Below, piece after piece: positions 14,512 through 20,822 of a stretch of 64,000 nucleotides of DNA (within the stretch, counting starts at the first letter, position 1; each line of letters begins with the position of its first letter). The position numbers were made by a program, and so were the translations under genes. The notes under the pieces are model-generated. The model was given only the letters and a program-made list of their open reading frames with translations. It was not told the origin of the DNA and did no database searches. Source of the DNA: a virus. The stretch is taken from UHGV virus genome UHGV-1366990; one strand, written 5' to 3'.

Positions 14512-15168
14512 TTACTTCTTGAACAGACGAAGGAACTTCATCATGTTTTCCATGAAAGTCGGCTTCTTGACCTTTTGTTTTACCGGAGCGCCCTGATCAT
14601 TCAGAACACGACTGACCGGAGGAGTAGGTGGTGTCGGCGCTTTCGTTTCACAGGCCGGAACGATGTTCACGTCATGATGAGAAGACTCAGATGTAGTGTT
14701 AACAACATTGTTCTCCTGGGCGACAGGCTTGACGAGATTCTTTTCATACTCGCGAGCCATGGCCTGGTACATCAGATTCAAATCCATCAGATCAACAGAC
14801 TTGACCTTGCGACGACGCCAATTGGCGCTTTCTTCGCCATAGAAATCATATCCGTTTCTGATCAGCCAGTGCACGGCTTGTTCAAACGAACCGAAGACCA
14901 TAAGTGGAGCGCCCTGGCCTTTCTCAGATTGTTCCAGGCTACCATAACCCATCAGCACAACCTGGCCTTTGATACTCAAATCAAACGTCATACCAAGGTT
15001 CGGGATGTTTTTATCGCGGCGGAAGAACCCGCCATCACGGTAGACGTAAACAGGCGACAGGAACTCATTCAGAGTGCGCTTGACACCCTTGTATTGGAAG
15101 AGTCTGGCAATTGGAGGGGTGTCATGGGAAATCACTTCGTTCAATTCCCAGATAGAAACATTACGCAT
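14512..15168 (-). CDS. hypothetical protein (218 aa)
   Basis: ORF with GAGGA RBS; first gene after tRNA-cluster terminator. Confidence 0.5.
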   Translation of the reverse strand: MRNVSIWELNEVISHDTPPIARLFQYKGVKRTLNEFLSPVYVYRDGGFFRRDKNIPNLGMTFDLSIKGQVVLMGYGSLEQSEKGQGAPLMVFGSFEQAVHWLIRNGYDFYGEESANWRRRKVKSVDLMDLNLMYQAMAREYEKNLVKPVAQENNVVNTTSESSHHDVNIVPACETKAPTPPTPPVSRVLNDQGAPVKQKVKKPTFMENMMKFLRLFKK

Positions 15169-15290
15169 TAGTGTATCCTCAAATCTATGATAGGGGGTTA
15201 ACGGTTAAATTTTAAACCCCCTTTGTATCATTGAACAAACTACGATAAAGGAGGACATGCTTGGGTCGATAAGAAGATAATAAGACAGGG

Positions 15291-15322
15291 ATAAAAAGAA
15301 AGCCGGATAGGATATCCGGCTA
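15291..15322 (-). terminator. intrinsic terminator closing the minus-strand tRNA cluster
   Basis: Hairpin agccggatag/gatatccggct followed on minus strand by ttcttttt. Confidence 0.5.
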
Positions 15323-15377
15323 TACCACATCGATGGGATGGGTTGAAAGACTACACGCTTGCACTGGTACTACCCTA

Positions 15378-15406
15378 TGGGAGAGCGCGTCAGGAGTCGA
15401 ACCTGA
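15378..15406 (-). other. tRNA-like T-arm hairpin (perfect TCAGG-TTCGACT-CCTGA) without a foldable cloverleaf; possible degenerate tRNA
   Basis: Canonical T-loop on minus strand but no matching acceptor 5' strand found by hand. Confidence 0.25.
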
Positions 15407-15537
15407 AGTCGTCGACGTAGAGAAAGCTATTTGCATTTCACTATCCTCGTCGCGATTTTCTTAACTTCCTAAACACCCGATTACGAGAGAGTCGACATGC
15501 ACATCTTCTAACTCTTCAGGAAGTCACGCCCGTAATT

Positions 15538-15626
15538 TGGCGGAAGGTGAAGGATTCGAACCTTCGGGGGCTAAAAGCCCCACTCGATTAGCAGTCGAGT
15601 CCCTTAAACCTCTCGGGCAACCTTCC
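15538..15626 (-). tRNA. tRNA-Ser (anticodon GCU), type II with long variable arm, CCA encoded
   Basis: Hand-folded: acceptor GGAAGGT/ACCTTCC, anticodon stem CTCGA/TCGAG, loop CTGCTAA, variable stem GGGGC/GCCCC, T-arm GAAGG-TTCGAAT-CCTTC. Confidence 0.85.
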
Positions 15627-15847
15627 AATTTGGACGGGCTTCACACCCGATTGAGCATTTGATCTGCCGTAGCCCAACTCCCCGCGCTTCTCAGCGCCGA
15701 TTGGTTAACTGGCGACCAGTGCCTTCTGGTTCGATCTCCTGGAACTTTACAGGCTTTGCGCCCGACCATTTCTGGAAGTTGGGGCATCGTTTCCGATGCG
15801 GAGTCATCCCCATTTTATACACAGCTGGCTGCAACGCTTACTGTGTT

Positions 15848-15891
15848 TGGTGTGAGTGGATGGATTCGAACCACCGCGCTGTTACACTCAC
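15848..15891 (-). other. tRNA-like minihelix: acceptor-like stem plus canonical T-arm and encoded CCA, no D or anticodon arm
   Basis: GTGAGTG...GGTGG-TTCGAAT-CCATC-CACTCAC-A-CCA on minus strand. Confidence 0.25.
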
Positions 15892-16148
15892 ATTTGGTCT
15901 GCCGCTGTGTGCTGGGCCACGCTCGAGGACATCGGCCATCCTTCCTCAGCTAATCCACGCAGCGGTAGATTTGTATCAGAGTGTCCGGTGTAGCAACCCG
16001 TGAGGTGCGCACTACTGTAGCCTCTACACTCTGAATTTGGTGGGCGCTACTATCGTCGTCTTCGGATTCCGTTCGGCTATTGGACAGAGGCTTGGAGCTT
16101 GTCGGTCGCGTACTTTATGCCTATTCACTTTCGTTCACACCCATTGTC

Positions 16149-16224
16149 TGGCGACGATGGCAGGACTTGAACCTGCGACATACGGTTTAACAGACCGCCG
16201 TTCTACCGACTGAACTACATCGTC
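16149..16224 (-). tRNA. tRNA-Asn (anticodon GUU), CCA encoded
   Basis: Hand-folded: acceptor GACGATG/CATCGTC, D-arm GTTC-AGTCGGTA-GAAC, anticodon loop CTGTTAA, T-arm GCAGG-TTCAAGT-CCTGC. Confidence 0.85.
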
Positions 16225-16395
16225 TTGCAAATCACTATACCATATAAAGTTTATTGAACAAACATTTATTTTACAACAAACTGTATTGGCGGGGTCTGAG
16301 GCTTTTCACCTCACCTGCTGGGTTTGGCCGCCCAGCCGTTCTCTATGAGGATTCACTGTCCGGACAGCTATCCATTAAACTATCGCCCCTCAATA

Positions 16396-16472
16396 TGGTG
16401 ATCCTGATTGGGTTTGAACCAATGACCAATGAATTATGAGTTCACTGCTCTAACCGACTGAGCTACAGGACC
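16396..16472 (-). tRNA. tRNA-Met (anticodon CAU; initiator/elongator/Ile-lysidine not distinguished), CCA encoded
   Basis: Hand-folded: acceptor GGTCCTG/CAGGATC, D-arm GCTC-AGTCGGTTA-GAGC, anticodon loop CTCATAA, T-arm ATTGG-TTCAAAC-CCAAT. Confidence 0.85.
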
Positions 16473-16684
16473 AAATTATTGTGTACCAACCAAGGACTGT
16501 CAACCCTTTATCCCGTTTGTGTATGATCAGTTCATGCATGCCTCTTTGTGCTGCCTCACGGCATGCGCTTCTGTGGGTCTTTGGCTTGCACCATAGCCTC
16601 GCCACAGGCGTTTATTTTTCCAGGGCTTTCCACTTACAAGTCTTAACCAGACCGGGATACGGGCTTGTAAGATCGGGTTGGACA

Positions 16685-16762
16685 CAACTTTGATAGCTCT
16701 GGTACTAAAGATCCCGCGTCACCCATAGACATGGTTTATAAAATCCAGAGCTATCAAAGTTG
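16685..16762. repeat. perfect 18-bp inverted repeat (caactttgatagctctgg / ccagagctatcaaagttg) around a 42-nt loop
   Basis: Read directly from sequence: 16685-16702 pairs with 16745-16762. Confidence 0.6.
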
Positions 16763-16783
16763 CACCCAATGCTCTCTCAAGTT

Positions 16784-16909
16784 CACAAATCGAAGTGCCC
16801 TGACTCAACAGTATGGCCCAATATGCTGTTATCGTCCACCGGATTGGCCGCCCAATTTGTAGATCAACCTTTGGGTTTAAGATAAATTGTCAAGACACTT
16901 CGATTTGTG
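16784..16909. repeat. perfect 14-bp inverted repeat (cacaaatcgaagtg / cacttcgatttgtg) spanning ~100 nt
   Basis: 16784-16797 pairs with 16896-16909; both arms followed by CCC. Confidence 0.5.
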
Positions 16910-16994
16910 TGCCCTTCACCTGCCAGGGATCAGGGCTGATGGCAAGACTTCGCTCACATCTTTCAAGATACTCGTGAGAATATCCTCAAAGATG

Positions 16995-17022
16995 TGGAGC
17001 CGTTTTTAGGAGTCGAACCCAA
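16995..17022 (-). other. tRNA-like 3' end (CCA, acceptor-like strand, T-arm TTGGG-TTCGACT-CCTAA) without complete cloverleaf
   Basis: T-loop consensus on minus strand; no 5' acceptor partner found. Confidence 0.2.
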
Positions 17023-17905
17023 ATGCTTGGCCAGCGCTGACCTTACATCCCATCTGACTTAGGCAACCCACCTCTGCTTACTCAGGAGCTTATCCCCTTT
17101 GGACAGTCAGATATAACGGCATTGTCGACGGGAGATTATTAATCACACCCTCCCGTCTATTTTAGTGCGCCGAATTTGGTGATGAGGAATCGGAAGACCT
17201 CACTGACTTATAGGCTGTTACGCCGCCATCAGAACTTCGGAATCATTAGCAGTTATTTGCTTGGTCAGTTTCTAAAAACCCGCAAAGTCACTCACAACGA
17301 AAACGAAAACCTGTTTGAGCACAAGACGCCATGTCCTGGGTTCACATCGAAGTGTTTGTCTAATGCCCAAACAGCTTTTCGCTTCAGTGGGTTAACTATA
17401 CTTTGTAACCCGTTATTGATAAAACCTTTTATTTTTGTTGGCGAGGGTATCACCATCGATTTACCGGAACTTACGCATCCGGCCTCGCCTGTTGGTGATC
17501 CTTCGAATCCGGGAAGATCAGTAGGAACTATGAATCAAGTTAATTCAACCAACAGGAACCTTGTTGCCCTTTGACGCAACATTATGAACCCTCTATGGAA
17601 GACTCATAATGTTGTCGGCGTGATGGAGATTAGCGCCCCCGACCTCCCCTTGTGTTGGTGTCGACTTGCCAACGGGGTGCTCTCTATTTCTGAGCTAATC
17701 ACGCTACAACAGGGAGTTTCGTTCTCCGACGGTCAAGTGCGTCCACTGACACCATGCAAGGTGGATATTGACTTATGAAGCCGGAGTCCTCGTCCTAGGA
17801 CTGTGCTTGGCCTCAGCCTTTACACCGCTGGTCGCCCGACTCTTTACACCATAAAATTTACTATACTACAGCCAAGCTAATTTGAAAAGTCCTCTCCTCT
17901 TTGTG

Positions 17906-18052
17906 CTACACTGCCCACAGCAGTGCGGACGAACCTTCACACAAAACCGGATGCGCCGAAGTGGGCGACTGTTTACCGGACTGATCGGGTAGACCCAGGA
18001 GAGAGCAGGTAATCCCGATCAGGAGGATGAGGAGTAACATCATGTAAAACAT
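17906..18052 (-). CDS. small ORF (48 aa) with signal-peptide-like N-terminus MFYMMLLLILLIGITCSLLG
   Basis: Below ORF-track cutoff; GGAGGG RBS 6 nt upstream of ATG; coordinates from manual reading. Confidence 0.25.
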   Translation of the reverse strand: MFYMMLLLILLIGITCSLLGLPDQSGKQSPTSAHPVLCEGSSALLWAV

Positions 18053-18108
18053 AGTGTTCCCTCCTTCCATGCAACTAACTTTACTGCAATTATTTATTGA
18101 ATAAAGCG

Positions 18109-18678
18109 TTATTTTAACACTTCTAACTTCACAACACGACGCAGAAGGTAAACATATTCGCCAGCAGCTTCATGCGTCATATAATGGGTAGAAGGTGTGG
18201 AATGAGTGTTCTGGGTTTCTTTTAATCCAACGCGTTCAGCCCAACCATTAATAGAGTTCCCATAGAAACCGATAATCGCGCCAAAATAAATGCGCCCGCT
18301 TTCTGGCTCTAAAACGTAGTTGACAGTGAAGCAAATGTCAGAACGAATAGACTCCAGTTTCATACCAACACGACCTTCAGAGAATTCGTTACGAACATAT
18401 AAATGACGGAAGCGATCGCGCCGTGCTTGTGATGATTCTTCCAATTCTTGTCGAAGTGAAGAAGTTATGTCAATATTAAATGAAAATGTTGGATTTCGTA
18501 AATCAGAACGGGCCAACTCTAACGCAGATTCAATAACGCGACGGAAATTGATACTTTTACCTGTCAGGCGTTTCACTTCATCGGTGATTGTTTCAAAAGG
18601 GATTTTCGGGGCGCGTTCCCCTTCGTATTTTGCTAACAAAGGAATAATGTGTTTCATGATTGCTGTGTTAATGTGCAT
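18109..18678 (-). CDS. hypothetical protein (189 aa), isolated gene between tRNA region and late module
   Basis: ORF with GAGG RBS; flanked by ~1 kb and ~0.3 kb ORF-poor DNA. Confidence 0.55.
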   Translation of the reverse strand: MHINTAIMKHIIPLLAKYEGERAPKIPFETITDEVKRLTGKSINFRRVIESALELARSDLRNPTFSFNIDITSSLRQELEESSQARRDRFRHLYVRNEFSEGRVGMKLESIRSDICFTVNYVLEPESGRIYFGAIIGFYGNSINGWAERVGLKETQNTHSTPSTHYMTHEAAGEYVYLLRRVVKLEVLK

Positions 18679-18996
18679 TCCGGAGCCTCACTGGATTGAT
18701 TAAATGTCTCCGTTATTATATTGGGAGTATGTTTATTGAATATAAACACAGGAATGACCAATAAAATAATGACAGTGATTATTAATAGGTAAAAACTACT
18801 TTTCTACAACATCAAGAAACTGTATCCTAACGCAGTGCCCTTCGAGTTGTGAGTGTCAACGAACAACGAGAAGCAGCCTCCATGGCTGTGGAATGGTGCT
18901 GCCCGCATAGGGCGGTGTTACGAGCGAGGGCGTCAGCCCCCTCGCGAGTTATATTCGAATAAATTAAACGCGCGCGAGCGTTTTGATTCCCGTTGG

Positions 18997-19004
18997 CTAA
19001 ATAT
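18997..19004 (+). promoter_or_regulatory. late-promoter-like motif CTAAATAT (T4 TATAAATA analogue) upstream of baseplate gene
   Basis: Motif 40 nt upstream of ATG 19044; same core recurs before other virion genes. Confidence 0.4.
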
Positions 19005-19043
19005 CTTCAACACCATATTCAAACTCAGGTGATGGAGATTATC

Positions 19044-20822
19044 ATGGCCACGCAAACAGTCCCTTCACTCGATGTCAGGGCTTTCGAGTATCTTATCAAG
19101 AAGCGCATGAAAGCTGATCCAACTTTCAAGGATTATGACTTTGAAGGTTCTGGTCTCAGTGCAATCGTGCGTATCTTGGCCTCGGATGCCAACTCTATCG
19201 GGTTTATGCAGAACATGCTGAATGGCGAAAGCCATCTTCACTCTGCTCAACAGCGTTCTAATGTCGGTCTGGCGGCGGGGTTCTTATCTTACACCCCTCA
19301 CAACTACCAGGCAGCGTACCTGTACGCAAACGTCACAGTCACTCCATATGACGCCAGCACGGCTCCAGACACGATTGTAATGGATCGCCGCGCGATGTTC
19401 ATTGGGGTGAAGGATGGCAAATCTTATAACTTCACGGTTGACCAACCTGTGAGCGCCTCTCTTGTAGACGGCTCTTACAAGTTCGAGAACATCAAACTCA
19501 TACAGGGTAACTGGCTGTACAAGTCCTATGATGTGGAAGGCAGCGCGATCTCTACCTATGTGATCCCATCTTCTTCCGTGGACATCGACCATATGGTGGT
19601 ACAGGTACAGGAATCTGAGACATCTGACGTGCGATCTACCTTCTCACGATATGTCAGCCCGTTCGATTTGAGCCAGTATGCGCAACTTTACTTCGTTGAG
19701 CTGGGGTTGGACGGGATGTACACGTTCGAATTCGGTGATGGGTATATCTGTAAGCGAGTAGAAGACGGGAACGTCGTGTACCTCCAGTATCTGGAGACAG
19801 CTGGTGCAGACGGCAATGACATCACTACCTTGTCCTCCGCGTCTTCCATCGGGGGATTCAACCTTGTAGATGTTGAGCTGGTGTCAGAACGTTCTTCCGG
19901 TGGTAAGGACCCAGAGAGCATTGAGGACATCAAGCGCCTTGCTCCGCTGGCTTATCAGGCTGAGGGTGCGGCGGTAGCCGAAGTCGATTATGCTGTGTTG
20001 ACCGAGCGTCTGTTCTCTAACGTCTCCCGCGCCAAAGCATATGGTGGCGACACGCTCTCTCCGCCCGACTCCGGATACGTTTACATTGCTGTGATACCTT
20101 CTGTTGGTGAGGCGCTCTCGGACGCTGAGAAGGCAGATATCGTGGCGACGTTAGACAAGTACAATGTGGGCACGATCACACCCAAGATTGTCGACGCTGA
20201 ACTGACTTATGTTGATGTCACCACCCGCGTGTTCTGGGATCCGACTTCCACGTCCTATACCGAAGAGCAGTTGAAGACAGTCGTGAAGAACGGTGTTGTC
20301 AACTGGGGCTTGGGGAACCTAGAAGGATTCGACGAACTGTTCGATAAAGAGCAGTTACAGTCGGCCATCACCGACATGGACAGATCGATAGTGTCAAACA
20401 TCACTTCTGTGAAGTATAAGCGCCATTTCAAGCCAGACTATGGGGTACTGGACAGCTTCACATTCGATTTTGGGCGCTCGATTGCGTCTGGTTCTGTGCG
20501 TATCAGTGGGTTTAAGCCGCTTCCGGCCGAGGTCGAATTCACTTACTACATACGCGACGTCAGTGGTGTCCTGAATATGTACAAGGTGAGTACAACAGAC
20601 ACGACCAAGGAATATCTGGTACAATCTGTTGGAACGGTTGATTATATGACTGGCGTTGTTGAACTCCAGCGTATCATAGTATCCAACTACAACACTGAGG
20701 GTGTGACAATAATTGTGTCTCCAGACGGTCTTGACCAGAACATTCAGGCCACACAGAATCAGGTGCTCCGCATCGGTGCTGTAACTGTGGAGCCGGAGGT
20801 GCGTTATGTCCAAAGATCTTAA
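19044..20822 (+). CDS. baseplate wedge protein (gp6-like)
   Basis: 592 aa from ATG with GGAG RBS (track start 18993 is TTG); first gene of late module, size and position fit T4 gp6. Confidence 0.6.
   Translation: MATQTVPSLDVRAFEYLIKKRMKADPTFKDYDFEGSGLSAIVRILASDANSIGFMQNMLNGESHLHSAQQRSNVGLAAGFLSYTPHNYQAAYLYANVTVTPYDASTAPDTIVMDRRAMFIGVKDGKSYNFTVDQPVSASLVDGSYKFENIKLIQGNWLYKSYDVEGSAISTYVIPSSSVDIDHMVVQVQESETSDVRSTFSRYVSPFDLSQYAQLYFVELGLDGMYTFEFGDGYICKRVEDGNVVYLQYLETAGADGNDITTLSSASSIGGFNLVDVELVSERSSGGKDPESIEDIKRLAPLAYQAEGAAVAEVDYAVLTERLFSNVSRAKAYGGDTLSPPDSGYVYIAVIPSVGEALSDAEKADIVATLDKYNVGTITPKIVDAELTYVDVTTRVFWDPTSTSYTEEQLKTVVKNGVVNWGLGNLEGFDELFDKEQLQSAITDMDRSIVSNITSVKYKRHFKPDYGVLDSFTFDFGRSIASGSVRISGFKPLPAEVEFTYYIRDVSGVLNMYKVSTTDTTKEYLVQSVGTVDYMTGVVELQRIIVSNYNTEGVTIIVSPDGLDQNIQATQNQVLRIGAVTVEPEVRYVQRS

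Follow-up and report, generated by a model that had tools for sequence, protein, structure and literature searches.

What does a phage keep in the DNA between its tRNA cluster and the next gene, if not another protein-coding gene? The question is raised by UHGV virus genome UHGV-1366990, of which a stretch of 64,000 nt (the window) was analyzed here, and in which a preliminary description had marked positions 17100–18100 as about 1 kb without a convincing long open reading frame (ORF). Small proteins, an unrecognised non-coding RNA (ncRNA), and a replication or packaging site had been offered as possible contents. The answer is that the gap is a minus-strand island of RNA genes, an extension of the phage tRNA cluster. 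Its central element, here called the tag RNA, keeps the mRNA-like half of transfer-messenger RNA (tmRNA) without the alanine-accepting tRNA-like domain, and is probably a tmRNA-derived tag-template RNA used in ribosome rescue. The ncRNA option was thus right but understated, as the gap holds several structured RNAs, including this tmRNA-like tag RNA common to unrelated phages.

A sensitive BLAST search with 16480–18100 finds that a short segment (~17135–17304) also matches unrelated phages at 70–82% identity: the lambdoid podovirus HK620; the siphoviruses Sa179lw, STGO-35-1, Cronobacter phages CS01 and ESP2949-1, and Klebsiella phages; and the N4-like Schitoviridae EC1-UPM and PGN829.1. In nearly all of them no annotation lies beneath the match. 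With the 191-nt core as query, blastn retrieves 417 phage records (299 with at least 80% core coverage) that include Ackermannviridae, lambdoid HK620, N4-like phages, and several siphovirus genera. An HK620-type element is present in 147 of 5426 complete RefSeq E. coli genomes, unannotated in all but one among the matches listed, and across the 417 phage records and 147 E. coli genomes the core is annotated as RNA essentially never. When IMG/VR was scanned by pattern for the invariant 17-mer UGCGGNUUUUUAGAAAC, 119 loci were obtained, 97 of which hold the element. In genome contigs the strict pattern had no match, and a looser pattern had 46, about the chance number, of which one (Rouxiella sp.) is real.

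The genomic setting of the element always consists of tRNA or tRNA-like genes or of late transcription units. In HK620 and a prophage of enterohaemorrhagic E. coli (EHEC), it is flanked by the Q antiterminator/pR' on one side and by the holin gene S on the other, in the sense of late transcription. In siphoviruses it occupies a 570–700-nt gap that separates head from tail genes, in the same orientation as the adjoining tRNA-Met gene. In N4-like phages it sits in a 2-kb gap rich in T-loop motifs, starting directly after the CCA end of a tRNA, and in some of these phages it ends at an intrinsic terminator. In the window, the element is made up of the following parts:

17127–17310, minus strand: conserved core of the tag RNA (~185 nt), from the conservation profile, the alignment of 81 distinct cores, and the 417 blastn phage records
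17218–17250, minus strand: tag frame, read from the sequence as GCT AAT GAT TCC GAA GTT CTG ATG GCG GCG TAA = ANDSEVLMAA*
17165–17202, minus strand: H-type pseudoknot just after the tag, from covariation, with stem S1 UGAGG/CCUCA and stem S2 pairing loop CCGA with UCGG
17127–17157, minus strand: hairpin HP2, with near-invariant loop GGUGUGAUUAAUAA and variable stem, from lineage comparison
17311–17375, minus strand: 5' hairpin of the tag RNA in its Ackermannviridae version, in which the window type (GGGCA../..TGTGCTC) differs from the Det7 type (GAGTCCT../..AGGACTC) by compensatory changes

The tag frame of the window has neither a start codon (AUG) nor a Shine-Dalgarno sequence, and an in-frame UAG lies eight codons upstream. 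The E. coli ssrA tag is ANDENYALAA. Siphovirus and N4-like elements encode ANDDVVLMAA, HK620 encodes ANEEMYLAVA, Serratia phage 2050H1 ANDNAYLMVA, and Erwinia phage Bue1 ANDNEFKVAA; a further variant is ANDNTFLAVA. All 10 sense codons and the stop are kept, with zero indels, in the 41 distinct tag DNAs from 97 elements. Among these DNAs, codon 1 is GCA or GCT, codon 2 AAC or AAT, codon 7 CTG, TTG, or TTA, and codon 10 GCN with all four bases, while TAA, TAG, and TGA all serve as stops, so that variation is synonymous at codons 1, 2, 7, and 10 and among the stops. The consensus peptide is A-N-[DES]-x-x-[YFVMI]-[LK]-[AMV]-[AV]-A, with N-termini of the type AN[DES] and C-termini LMAA, LAVA, LAAA, LMVA, or KVAA, the latter resembling a putative ssrA-type degron with a hydrophobic, Ala-ended (LAA-like) terminus. 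Since the variants differ mainly by synonymous or conservative codon changes, the peptide is under selection, which is what the codon-periodic pattern indicates.

Immediately upstream of this frame, U-A-A at −5 to −3 from the first tag codon is invariant in the 81 distinct cores (T60, A61, and A62 of alignment A2); Serratia 2050H1 has C-A instead of U-A at the frame-setting site. In E. coli tmRNA, U85 and A86 show high conservation, and the frame cannot be chosen properly without A86, whereas U85C is tolerated (PMC2481249). The U-A at −5/−4 of the tag RNA corresponds to U85/A86. This motif also bears on the possibility that the tag RNA is a decoy, that is, an untranslated mimic of the template that would modulate trans-translation in the host by titrating SmpB, S1, RNase R, or some other factor that binds tmRNA. 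A decoy would suit an RNA that has no tRNA-like domain and conserves a U-A reported to be SmpB-protected (PMC2481249), and a precedent exists in the inhibitory tmRNA fragment of phage DS6A (PMC11915505). However, the codon-periodic variation (free third positions, Leu via CTG, TTG, and TTA, three stops, a fixed length of 10 codons) points to decoding, and both ssrA-like peptide ends, AND... and ...L[AM][AV]A, are kept; a decoy is accordingly rated as quite improbable.

The RNA around the frame opens with a mini-hairpin, followed by a stem whose loop is the invariant UGCGGNUUUUUAGAAAC; after the tag frame come a small hairpin in which the stop codon is located, the pseudoknot, and HP2. Pseudoknot stem S1 reads UGAGG/CCUCA in the window and CAAGG/CCUUG elsewhere; it is 99% paired, and in three of its pairs both partners have changed. 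For S2 (CCGA/UCGG in the window, CCAG/CUGG in HK620), the corresponding figures are 91.6% and two pairs. The covariation score of the pseudoknot is 0.259 as against 0.134 for shuffled alignments (0/500 reach it), and it is at most 0.095 when the partners are slid. In some N4-like, Serratia, and Erwinia phages, the pseudoknot and HP2 come in another sequence version (CAGGGG..GAGUCG..CCCUG..CGAC) with unchanged architecture. The HP2 stem is GGGAG/CUCCC or GGCCC/GGGC depending on lineage, longer in STGO-35-1, and CCCCG/CGGGG in type B. The stem upstream of the tag encloses the invariant 17-mer, and this invariance leaves no covariation signal for an equivalent of the tmRNA pseudoknot PK1. RNAalifold adds a 3-bp closing helix that is backed by one-sided changes only.

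The tag RNA may be much longer than its core. In many phages (loci L004, which is HK620, at 1890–2260, L006, L005, and L001), long irregular hairpins flank the core; their stems are near-identical (..CAGGUAAGAGCA.. / ..UGCUCUUUCCG..), their apical inserts are highly variable, and the upstream and downstream copies are alike. In some N4-like phages, the insert of a flanking hairpin holds a T-loop hairpin, UUAGG-UUCAACU-CCUAA. Several hundred nt 3' of the tag, the motif AUGUAGGGGUAUGUA(U/A)GG is found in the loop of a 13-bp stem (L005, L007, and L006) and is common to the siphovirus and N4-like versions.

A candidate tRNA-like half in the window is the module that follows the core on its 3' side:

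16995–17120, minus strand: tRNA-like module 3, acceptor GCCGUU.../AACGGC-U-CCA with encoded CCA, T arm UUGGG-UUCGACU-CCUAA, and a 60-nt arm where the D arm is expected; without G3:U70 and not called by ARAGORN

This module is present in some Ackermannviridae, and Det7-type phages are without it. The siphovirus and lambdoid elements have another module 3' of the core (UGUGGUG.../CGCCACA-A), and the Enterobacter phage fGh-Ecl02 carries the siphovirus/N4-type stem after its core, the modules of the island being mosaic between relatives. One might therefore suppose a complete tmRNA of unconventional build, in which the adjacent 3' module (17120–16995) or a separate piece is charged, as a new two-piece permutation. 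In many lineages, among them the window and the siphovirus and lambdoid elements, modules with T arms and 6–7-bp acceptor stems do lie 3' of the core, and Rfam similarity is highest for the permuted (two-piece) model. The 3' tRNA-like structures of plant viruses are, moreover, aminoacylated despite long 5' extensions. On the other hand, G3:U70 occurs in none of the modules. They are non-homologous between lineages, HK620 and STGO-35-1 have degenerate versions, and elements with a terminator-ended RNA have none; the tag region would be joined via its 3' side only, the opposite of natural two-piece forms (PMC11915505). This arrangement is regarded as unlikely. As the downstream modules vary or are absent between lineages, the conserved and horizontally shared unit is the template half alone.

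Similarity to known RNA families is confined, in every lineage tested, to the coding parts of Rfam tmRNA models, and no other RNA family is matched. In the window, tmRNA_permuted scores 22.3 bits at 17218–17368, which is below its gathering threshold of 47 bits; the best score is 39 bits (E = 2.3e-4 in a 58-kb search, locus L018), and beta_tmRNA gives weak matches also. Two candidate 5' regions were discarded. GCTGTTT at 17375 could pair with the T arm at 17022 (7/7 pairs, 353 nt upstream, a tmRNA-like spacing), but ~0.6 such matches are expected by chance, the 3:70 pair would be U:G and not G:U, and the bases belong to a covarying local hairpin. The sequence GGATTCGAGACG upstream of the L018 element lies within a protein-coding ORF and is a coincidence.

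The preferred reading, in which the element derives from tmRNA and serves as a tag template in ribosome rescue, has to be held against several observations that weigh against it. No tmRNA was called by ARAGORN (tmRNA, relaxed, and intron modes) in any locus tested; for instance, its intron and relaxed modes return only the three known tRNAs from 15001–19100. Scans for T arms and acceptor strands across lineages found no alanine-type G3:U70 stem. In two phage types, a sigma-70-type promoter-like site puts the presumed 5' end of the RNA ~10 nt before the core, and there is therefore no room for a 5' acceptor strand. The downstream modules differ by lineage, with the degenerate forms mentioned above, and are absent from Det7-type Kutterviruses and from N4-like phages with a terminator-ended RNA, so that no universal partner exists in cis. 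No element tested (22–39 bits) reaches the Rfam tmRNA threshold. Outside the tag, similarity to E. coli ssrA in local alignment is within the shuffle range, and the cores pair with E. coli tmRNA no better than shuffles do (RNAduplex); the minimum free energy fold of ssrA was uninformative as a reference owing to its pseudoknots. The core is also accessory, because Dickeya Limestonevirus is without it. Finally, expression, processing, and tagging are inferred. The element thus has the features of tmRNA on the template side, lacks its tRNA-like domain, stays below the Rfam score, and is filed as a tmRNA variant and not as a tmRNA.

The most probable mechanism would begin late in infection, when the tag RNA may be cut from tRNA-type precursors by tRNA-processing enzymes. 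Ribosomes stalled on broken messages could then resume on the tag RNA template, with SmpB probably setting the frame on the conserved upstream U-A, and rescued proteins would receive a phage-encoded, ssrA-like degradation tag. Entry into the ribosome might depend on a neighbouring phage tRNA-like module, on the host Ala-tmRNA-SmpB complex, or on a route independent of any tRNA-like domain. A bolder version, in which ribosome rescue is hijacked by a free-standing template RNA that has no tRNA-like domain itself and the tag is dictated by the phage and not by the cell, is a doubtful one. Such a hijack might proceed in one of two ways, the tag RNA either being placed in the empty mRNA channel of a non-stop-stalled ribosome or, once host Ala-tmRNA-SmpB has entered, taking the place of the host tmRNA template, with SmpB reading the conserved U-A.

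In textbooks, tmRNA is an indivisible hybrid of tRNA and mRNA, the known exceptions being permuted two-piece and tag-less tRNA-like forms. A conserved, template-only relative of tmRNA that has spread horizontally through well-studied phages appears to be new. Its carriers include myoviruses of the ViI, CBA120, and Det7 type, HK620 and other lambdoid prophages (EHEC prophages among them), podoviruses of the N4 and G7C type, and several siphovirus genera, and current tmRNA and ncRNA finders miss the family entirely. If the preferred reading is true, ribosome rescue and protein tagging are subject to phage intervention of a kind not described before; if the free-standing hijack were true as well, trans-translation would have a new mode, and phages would control host proteolysis at a new level. 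The gene desert of ~1.5–2 kb that each Ackermannviridae genome contains calls for annotation as RNA genes and not as tiny hypothetical proteins.

That the desert is not filled with proteins can be judged from the window and its relatives. The best DNA matches of the window are Escherichia phage A221, the Enterobacter phage fGh-Ecl02 (Kuttervirus), and Salmonella phage vB_CECAV_050, and its source is an Ackermannviridae myovirus. The genes that border or enter the gap are:

15538–15626, minus strand: tRNA-Ser (ARAGORN and Rfam)
16149–16224, minus strand: tRNA-Asn (ARAGORN and Rfam)
16396–16472, minus strand: tRNA-Met (ARAGORN and Rfam)
17906–18052, minus strand: 48-aa ORF with a hydrophobic N-terminus, phrog_8415, function unknown; own ribosome-binding site (GGAGGG upstream), conserved and annotated in relatives
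18109–18678, minus strand: conserved 189-aa ORF, phrog_3788 by PHROG family match, function unknown; 31 homologues, AlphaFold 2 (AF2) model with pLDDT 88

Between tRNA-Met and 17905 there is no credible coding sequence, and 16473–17905 is without a conserved protein gene, so that the gap is larger than the 1 kb first described. ORFs in 17100–18100 are limited to two on the plus strand, of 132 aa (17176–17574) and 64 aa (17584–17778), and the minus-strand ORF at 17906–18052. The two plus-strand ORFs were rightly called weak, as they have zero Pfam or PHROG family matches; they are also not conserved, since the 143-aa stop-free stretch of the window is reduced to 57–103 aa, in other frames, in close relatives, and 1-nt indels and a 51-nt deletion in the family alignment fall within it. 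A homologous gap of 1.5–2.2 kb is kept in every Ackermannviridae genus checked. Its annotation is inconsistent, with differing tiny ORFs on differing strands depending on the annotator, and with zero annotated features in 1.5–2.2 kb in Serratia, Erwinia, and Dickeya members. A conserved annotated protein gene at this place in the relatives, the finding that the preliminary description had named as decisive against it, was looked for across Ackermannviridae genera and did not appear. The homologous region of some Kutterviruses, Salmonella phages FrontPhageNews and SS3 among them, has an annotated gene for an HNH homing endonuclease within it, and the RNA island is also a landing site for mobile genes.

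Of the earlier proposals, small proteins hold for the 48-aa ORF only, which had been placed correctly together with its GGAGGG and for which relatives already have an annotation; no other small ORF here is conserved. The neighbouring 18109–18678 had been described as without assignable function, and its PHROG family is one of unknown function. A region of small proteins, a replication origin, or a packaging site might be argued from the small ORFs that some annotators call, from a turn of the cumulative GC skew near the region, and from several GenBank records that begin here. These ORFs, however, differ in strand and frame, are unconserved, and belong to no family; iteron-type repeats were not found in the gap region; the skew turn coincides with a change of gene strand; and the records open within the gap by convention. 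Such an explanation is hardly credible, and the replication or packaging site of the preliminary description was dropped.

Beyond the tag RNA, the island contains further structured elements and putative promoters:

17860–17888, minus strand: promoter-like P2, sigma-70-type, TTTTCA-17-TATAGT, upstream of RNA A (promoter scan; conserved in the Ackermannviridae alignment)
17430–17853, minus strand: RNA A, structured, nearly invariant at 17560–17760 and variable in its 5' part (alignment of 11 relatives; no conserved ORF)
17618–17704, minus strand: tRNA-like cloverleaf 1 in RNA A, with a 7-bp acceptor stem, GCUC/GAGC D arm, and T loop GCGCUAAU; no encoded CCA
17437–17489, minus strand: remnant of tRNA-like 2, GGCGAGG...CCTCGCC-A, its T arm lost through a 51-nt deletion relative to Det7-type phages
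17395–17422, minus strand: promoter-like P3, TTATCA-16-TATAGT, upstream of the tag RNA (promoter scan; invariant in the Ackermannviridae alignment)
16955–16996, minus strand: strong hairpin directly after the CCA (inverted repeat I3), −27.9 kcal/mol, z = −5.4
16678–16909, listed as minus with the strand not established: two long hairpin domains, I2 (16784–16909) and I1 (16678–16769), from inverted repeats

P2 and P3 are predicted to be used as promoters, and each small unit of the region seems to have its own host-type promoter. By eye, similar TTNTCA-N16/17-TA(T/A)AGT sequences are seen on the minus strand at 18053–18100 (48-aa ORF) and 16228–16255 (tRNA-Asn). RNA A is seen in Ackermannviridae only, its block at 17560–17760 being almost invariant among Kuttervirus, Agtrevirus, and Taipeivirus. 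Cloverleaf 1 keeps 7/7 acceptor pairs with different sequences in three lineages (GCGTGAT/ATCACGC, ATGGTTG/CAACCAT, and TGACCTG/CAGGTCA), and its inner ("anticodon") stem covaries (TTGG/CCAA, CCGG/CCGG, and ATGG/CCAT); MAFFT had misplaced the Erwinia cloverleaf because of a 50-nt D-loop insertion, and the pairs were checked by a pattern-based parse. The RNA fold has z = −2.3. Tests for canonical tRNAs (ARAGORN and RF00005) call only Ser, Asn, and Met, and not cloverleaf 1. Its "anticodon" loop is 9–10 nt long and palindromic (GUCGAC in the window and in Erwinia Bue1, GUCAUGAC in Serratia 2050H1). As the palindrome outlasts sequence change, a loop-loop dimer of the kissing-loop homodimer type is suggested for cloverleaf 1.

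Det7 and others have GTGTGG-TTCGATT-CCACAC where the tRNA-like 2 remnant of the window has its gap, and the island evolves by gain and loss of modules. I2 shows compensatory differences relative to Det7 (CACAAATCGAAGTG / CGCAAATCGAAGTT and partners), and the I1/I2 region gives miRNA-like Rfam noise on both strands. The 49 nt at 16627–16675, in the hairpin region between tRNA-Met and the tag RNA, are 96% identical to the 144-kb Klebsiella phage KP13-26 and are a further horizontally shared fragment of the RNA island. Within the tRNA cluster, relatives have a tRNA-Tyr between tRNA-Ser and tRNA-Asn. In the window nothing more than a T arm and the acceptor 3' strand with CCA is left of it, and the gene is truncated (15860–15900, minus strand), because the 5' partner of the acceptor strand of the remnant at ~15875 (GGTGG-TTCGAAT-CCATC-CACTCAC-A-CCA) lies just 16 nt upstream. 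A pseudo-tRNA-like T arm is found at ~15406 (region 15400–15535, minus strand), and Det7 annotates a pseudo-tRNA at the corresponding place.

Such remnants invite the view of the whole island as decaying junk, made up of tRNA and tmRNA pseudogenes that no longer have a function. The 51-nt deletion in tRNA-like 2, the truncated tRNA-Tyr and pseudo-tRNA upstream, and the mosaic module content would all agree with it, but the core is nearly unchanged across unrelated phage families and bears compensatory base-pair changes together with peptide-level selection, and the cloverleaf of RNA A keeps its acceptor pairing through complete sequence turnover. Decay is very improbable as a general account, and it is already contradicted for the core and RNA A.

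How, then, does this locus compare with known systems? Phage tRNA clusters are known to contain stable tRNA-like RNAs, such as the species 1 and 2 RNAs of T4, and the large ornate RNAs GOLLD and ROOL lie beside tRNA genes. RNA A and the flanking modules fit among these structured non-tRNA RNAs, whose release is probably the work of tRNA-processing enzymes. The window has no match to GOLLD or ROOL by sequence or Rfam, and none of these RNAs, unlike the tag RNA, has a tag reading frame.

The tag RNA resembles one-piece tmRNA (SsrA, RF00023) in its AUG-less frame that starts from a GCN Ala codon, in the U-A at −5/−4, in a stop codon set in a hairpin, in a pseudoknot downstream of the tag, and in a 10-residue tag, AND...L-x-A/V-A, close to that of E. 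coli. Its hosts are Enterobacterales, whose own tag resembles the phage tag. It differs in having neither a G3:U70 acceptor stem nor a T arm placed so as to build a tRNA-like domain together with the 5' end, in having one clear post-tag pseudoknot as opposed to three, and in the simple stem-loop with invariant loop that stands upstream of the tag, with no recognisable PK1. RF00023 has no match to the tag RNA, matching only an 11-nt T loop elsewhere. The two-piece tmRNAs of alpha- and beta-proteobacteria and cyanobacteria (RF04321, RF01849-51) supply the best Rfam matches, which are sub-threshold (22–39 vs. 47 bits) and extend from a point ~25 nt before the resume codon as far as the stop. They also share with the tag RNA the idea of a coding piece that is physically apart from the acceptor piece. 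Their coding piece, however, starts with the 5' acceptor strand and their acceptor piece is encoded just upstream, neither of which is seen here.

A full-text literature search (subscription journals outside it) and the supplements of a tmRNA database paper contain no description of the tag peptides or of a phage tmRNA relative without a tRNA-like domain. That paper, from 2025, lists 79 phage tmRNAs as well as tag-less forms with the tRNA-like part only, and no template-only form (PMC11915505). One of the tag-less forms, from mycobacteriophage DS6A, inhibits E. coli tmRNA (PMC11915505). As in these cases, the tag RNA is a tmRNA-related gene that stands beside phage tRNA genes, and DS6A demonstrates that a fragment can act on the host system. 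Whereas the phage forms described so far are either complete or the tRNA-like half alone, the tag RNA is the opposite half, the template only.

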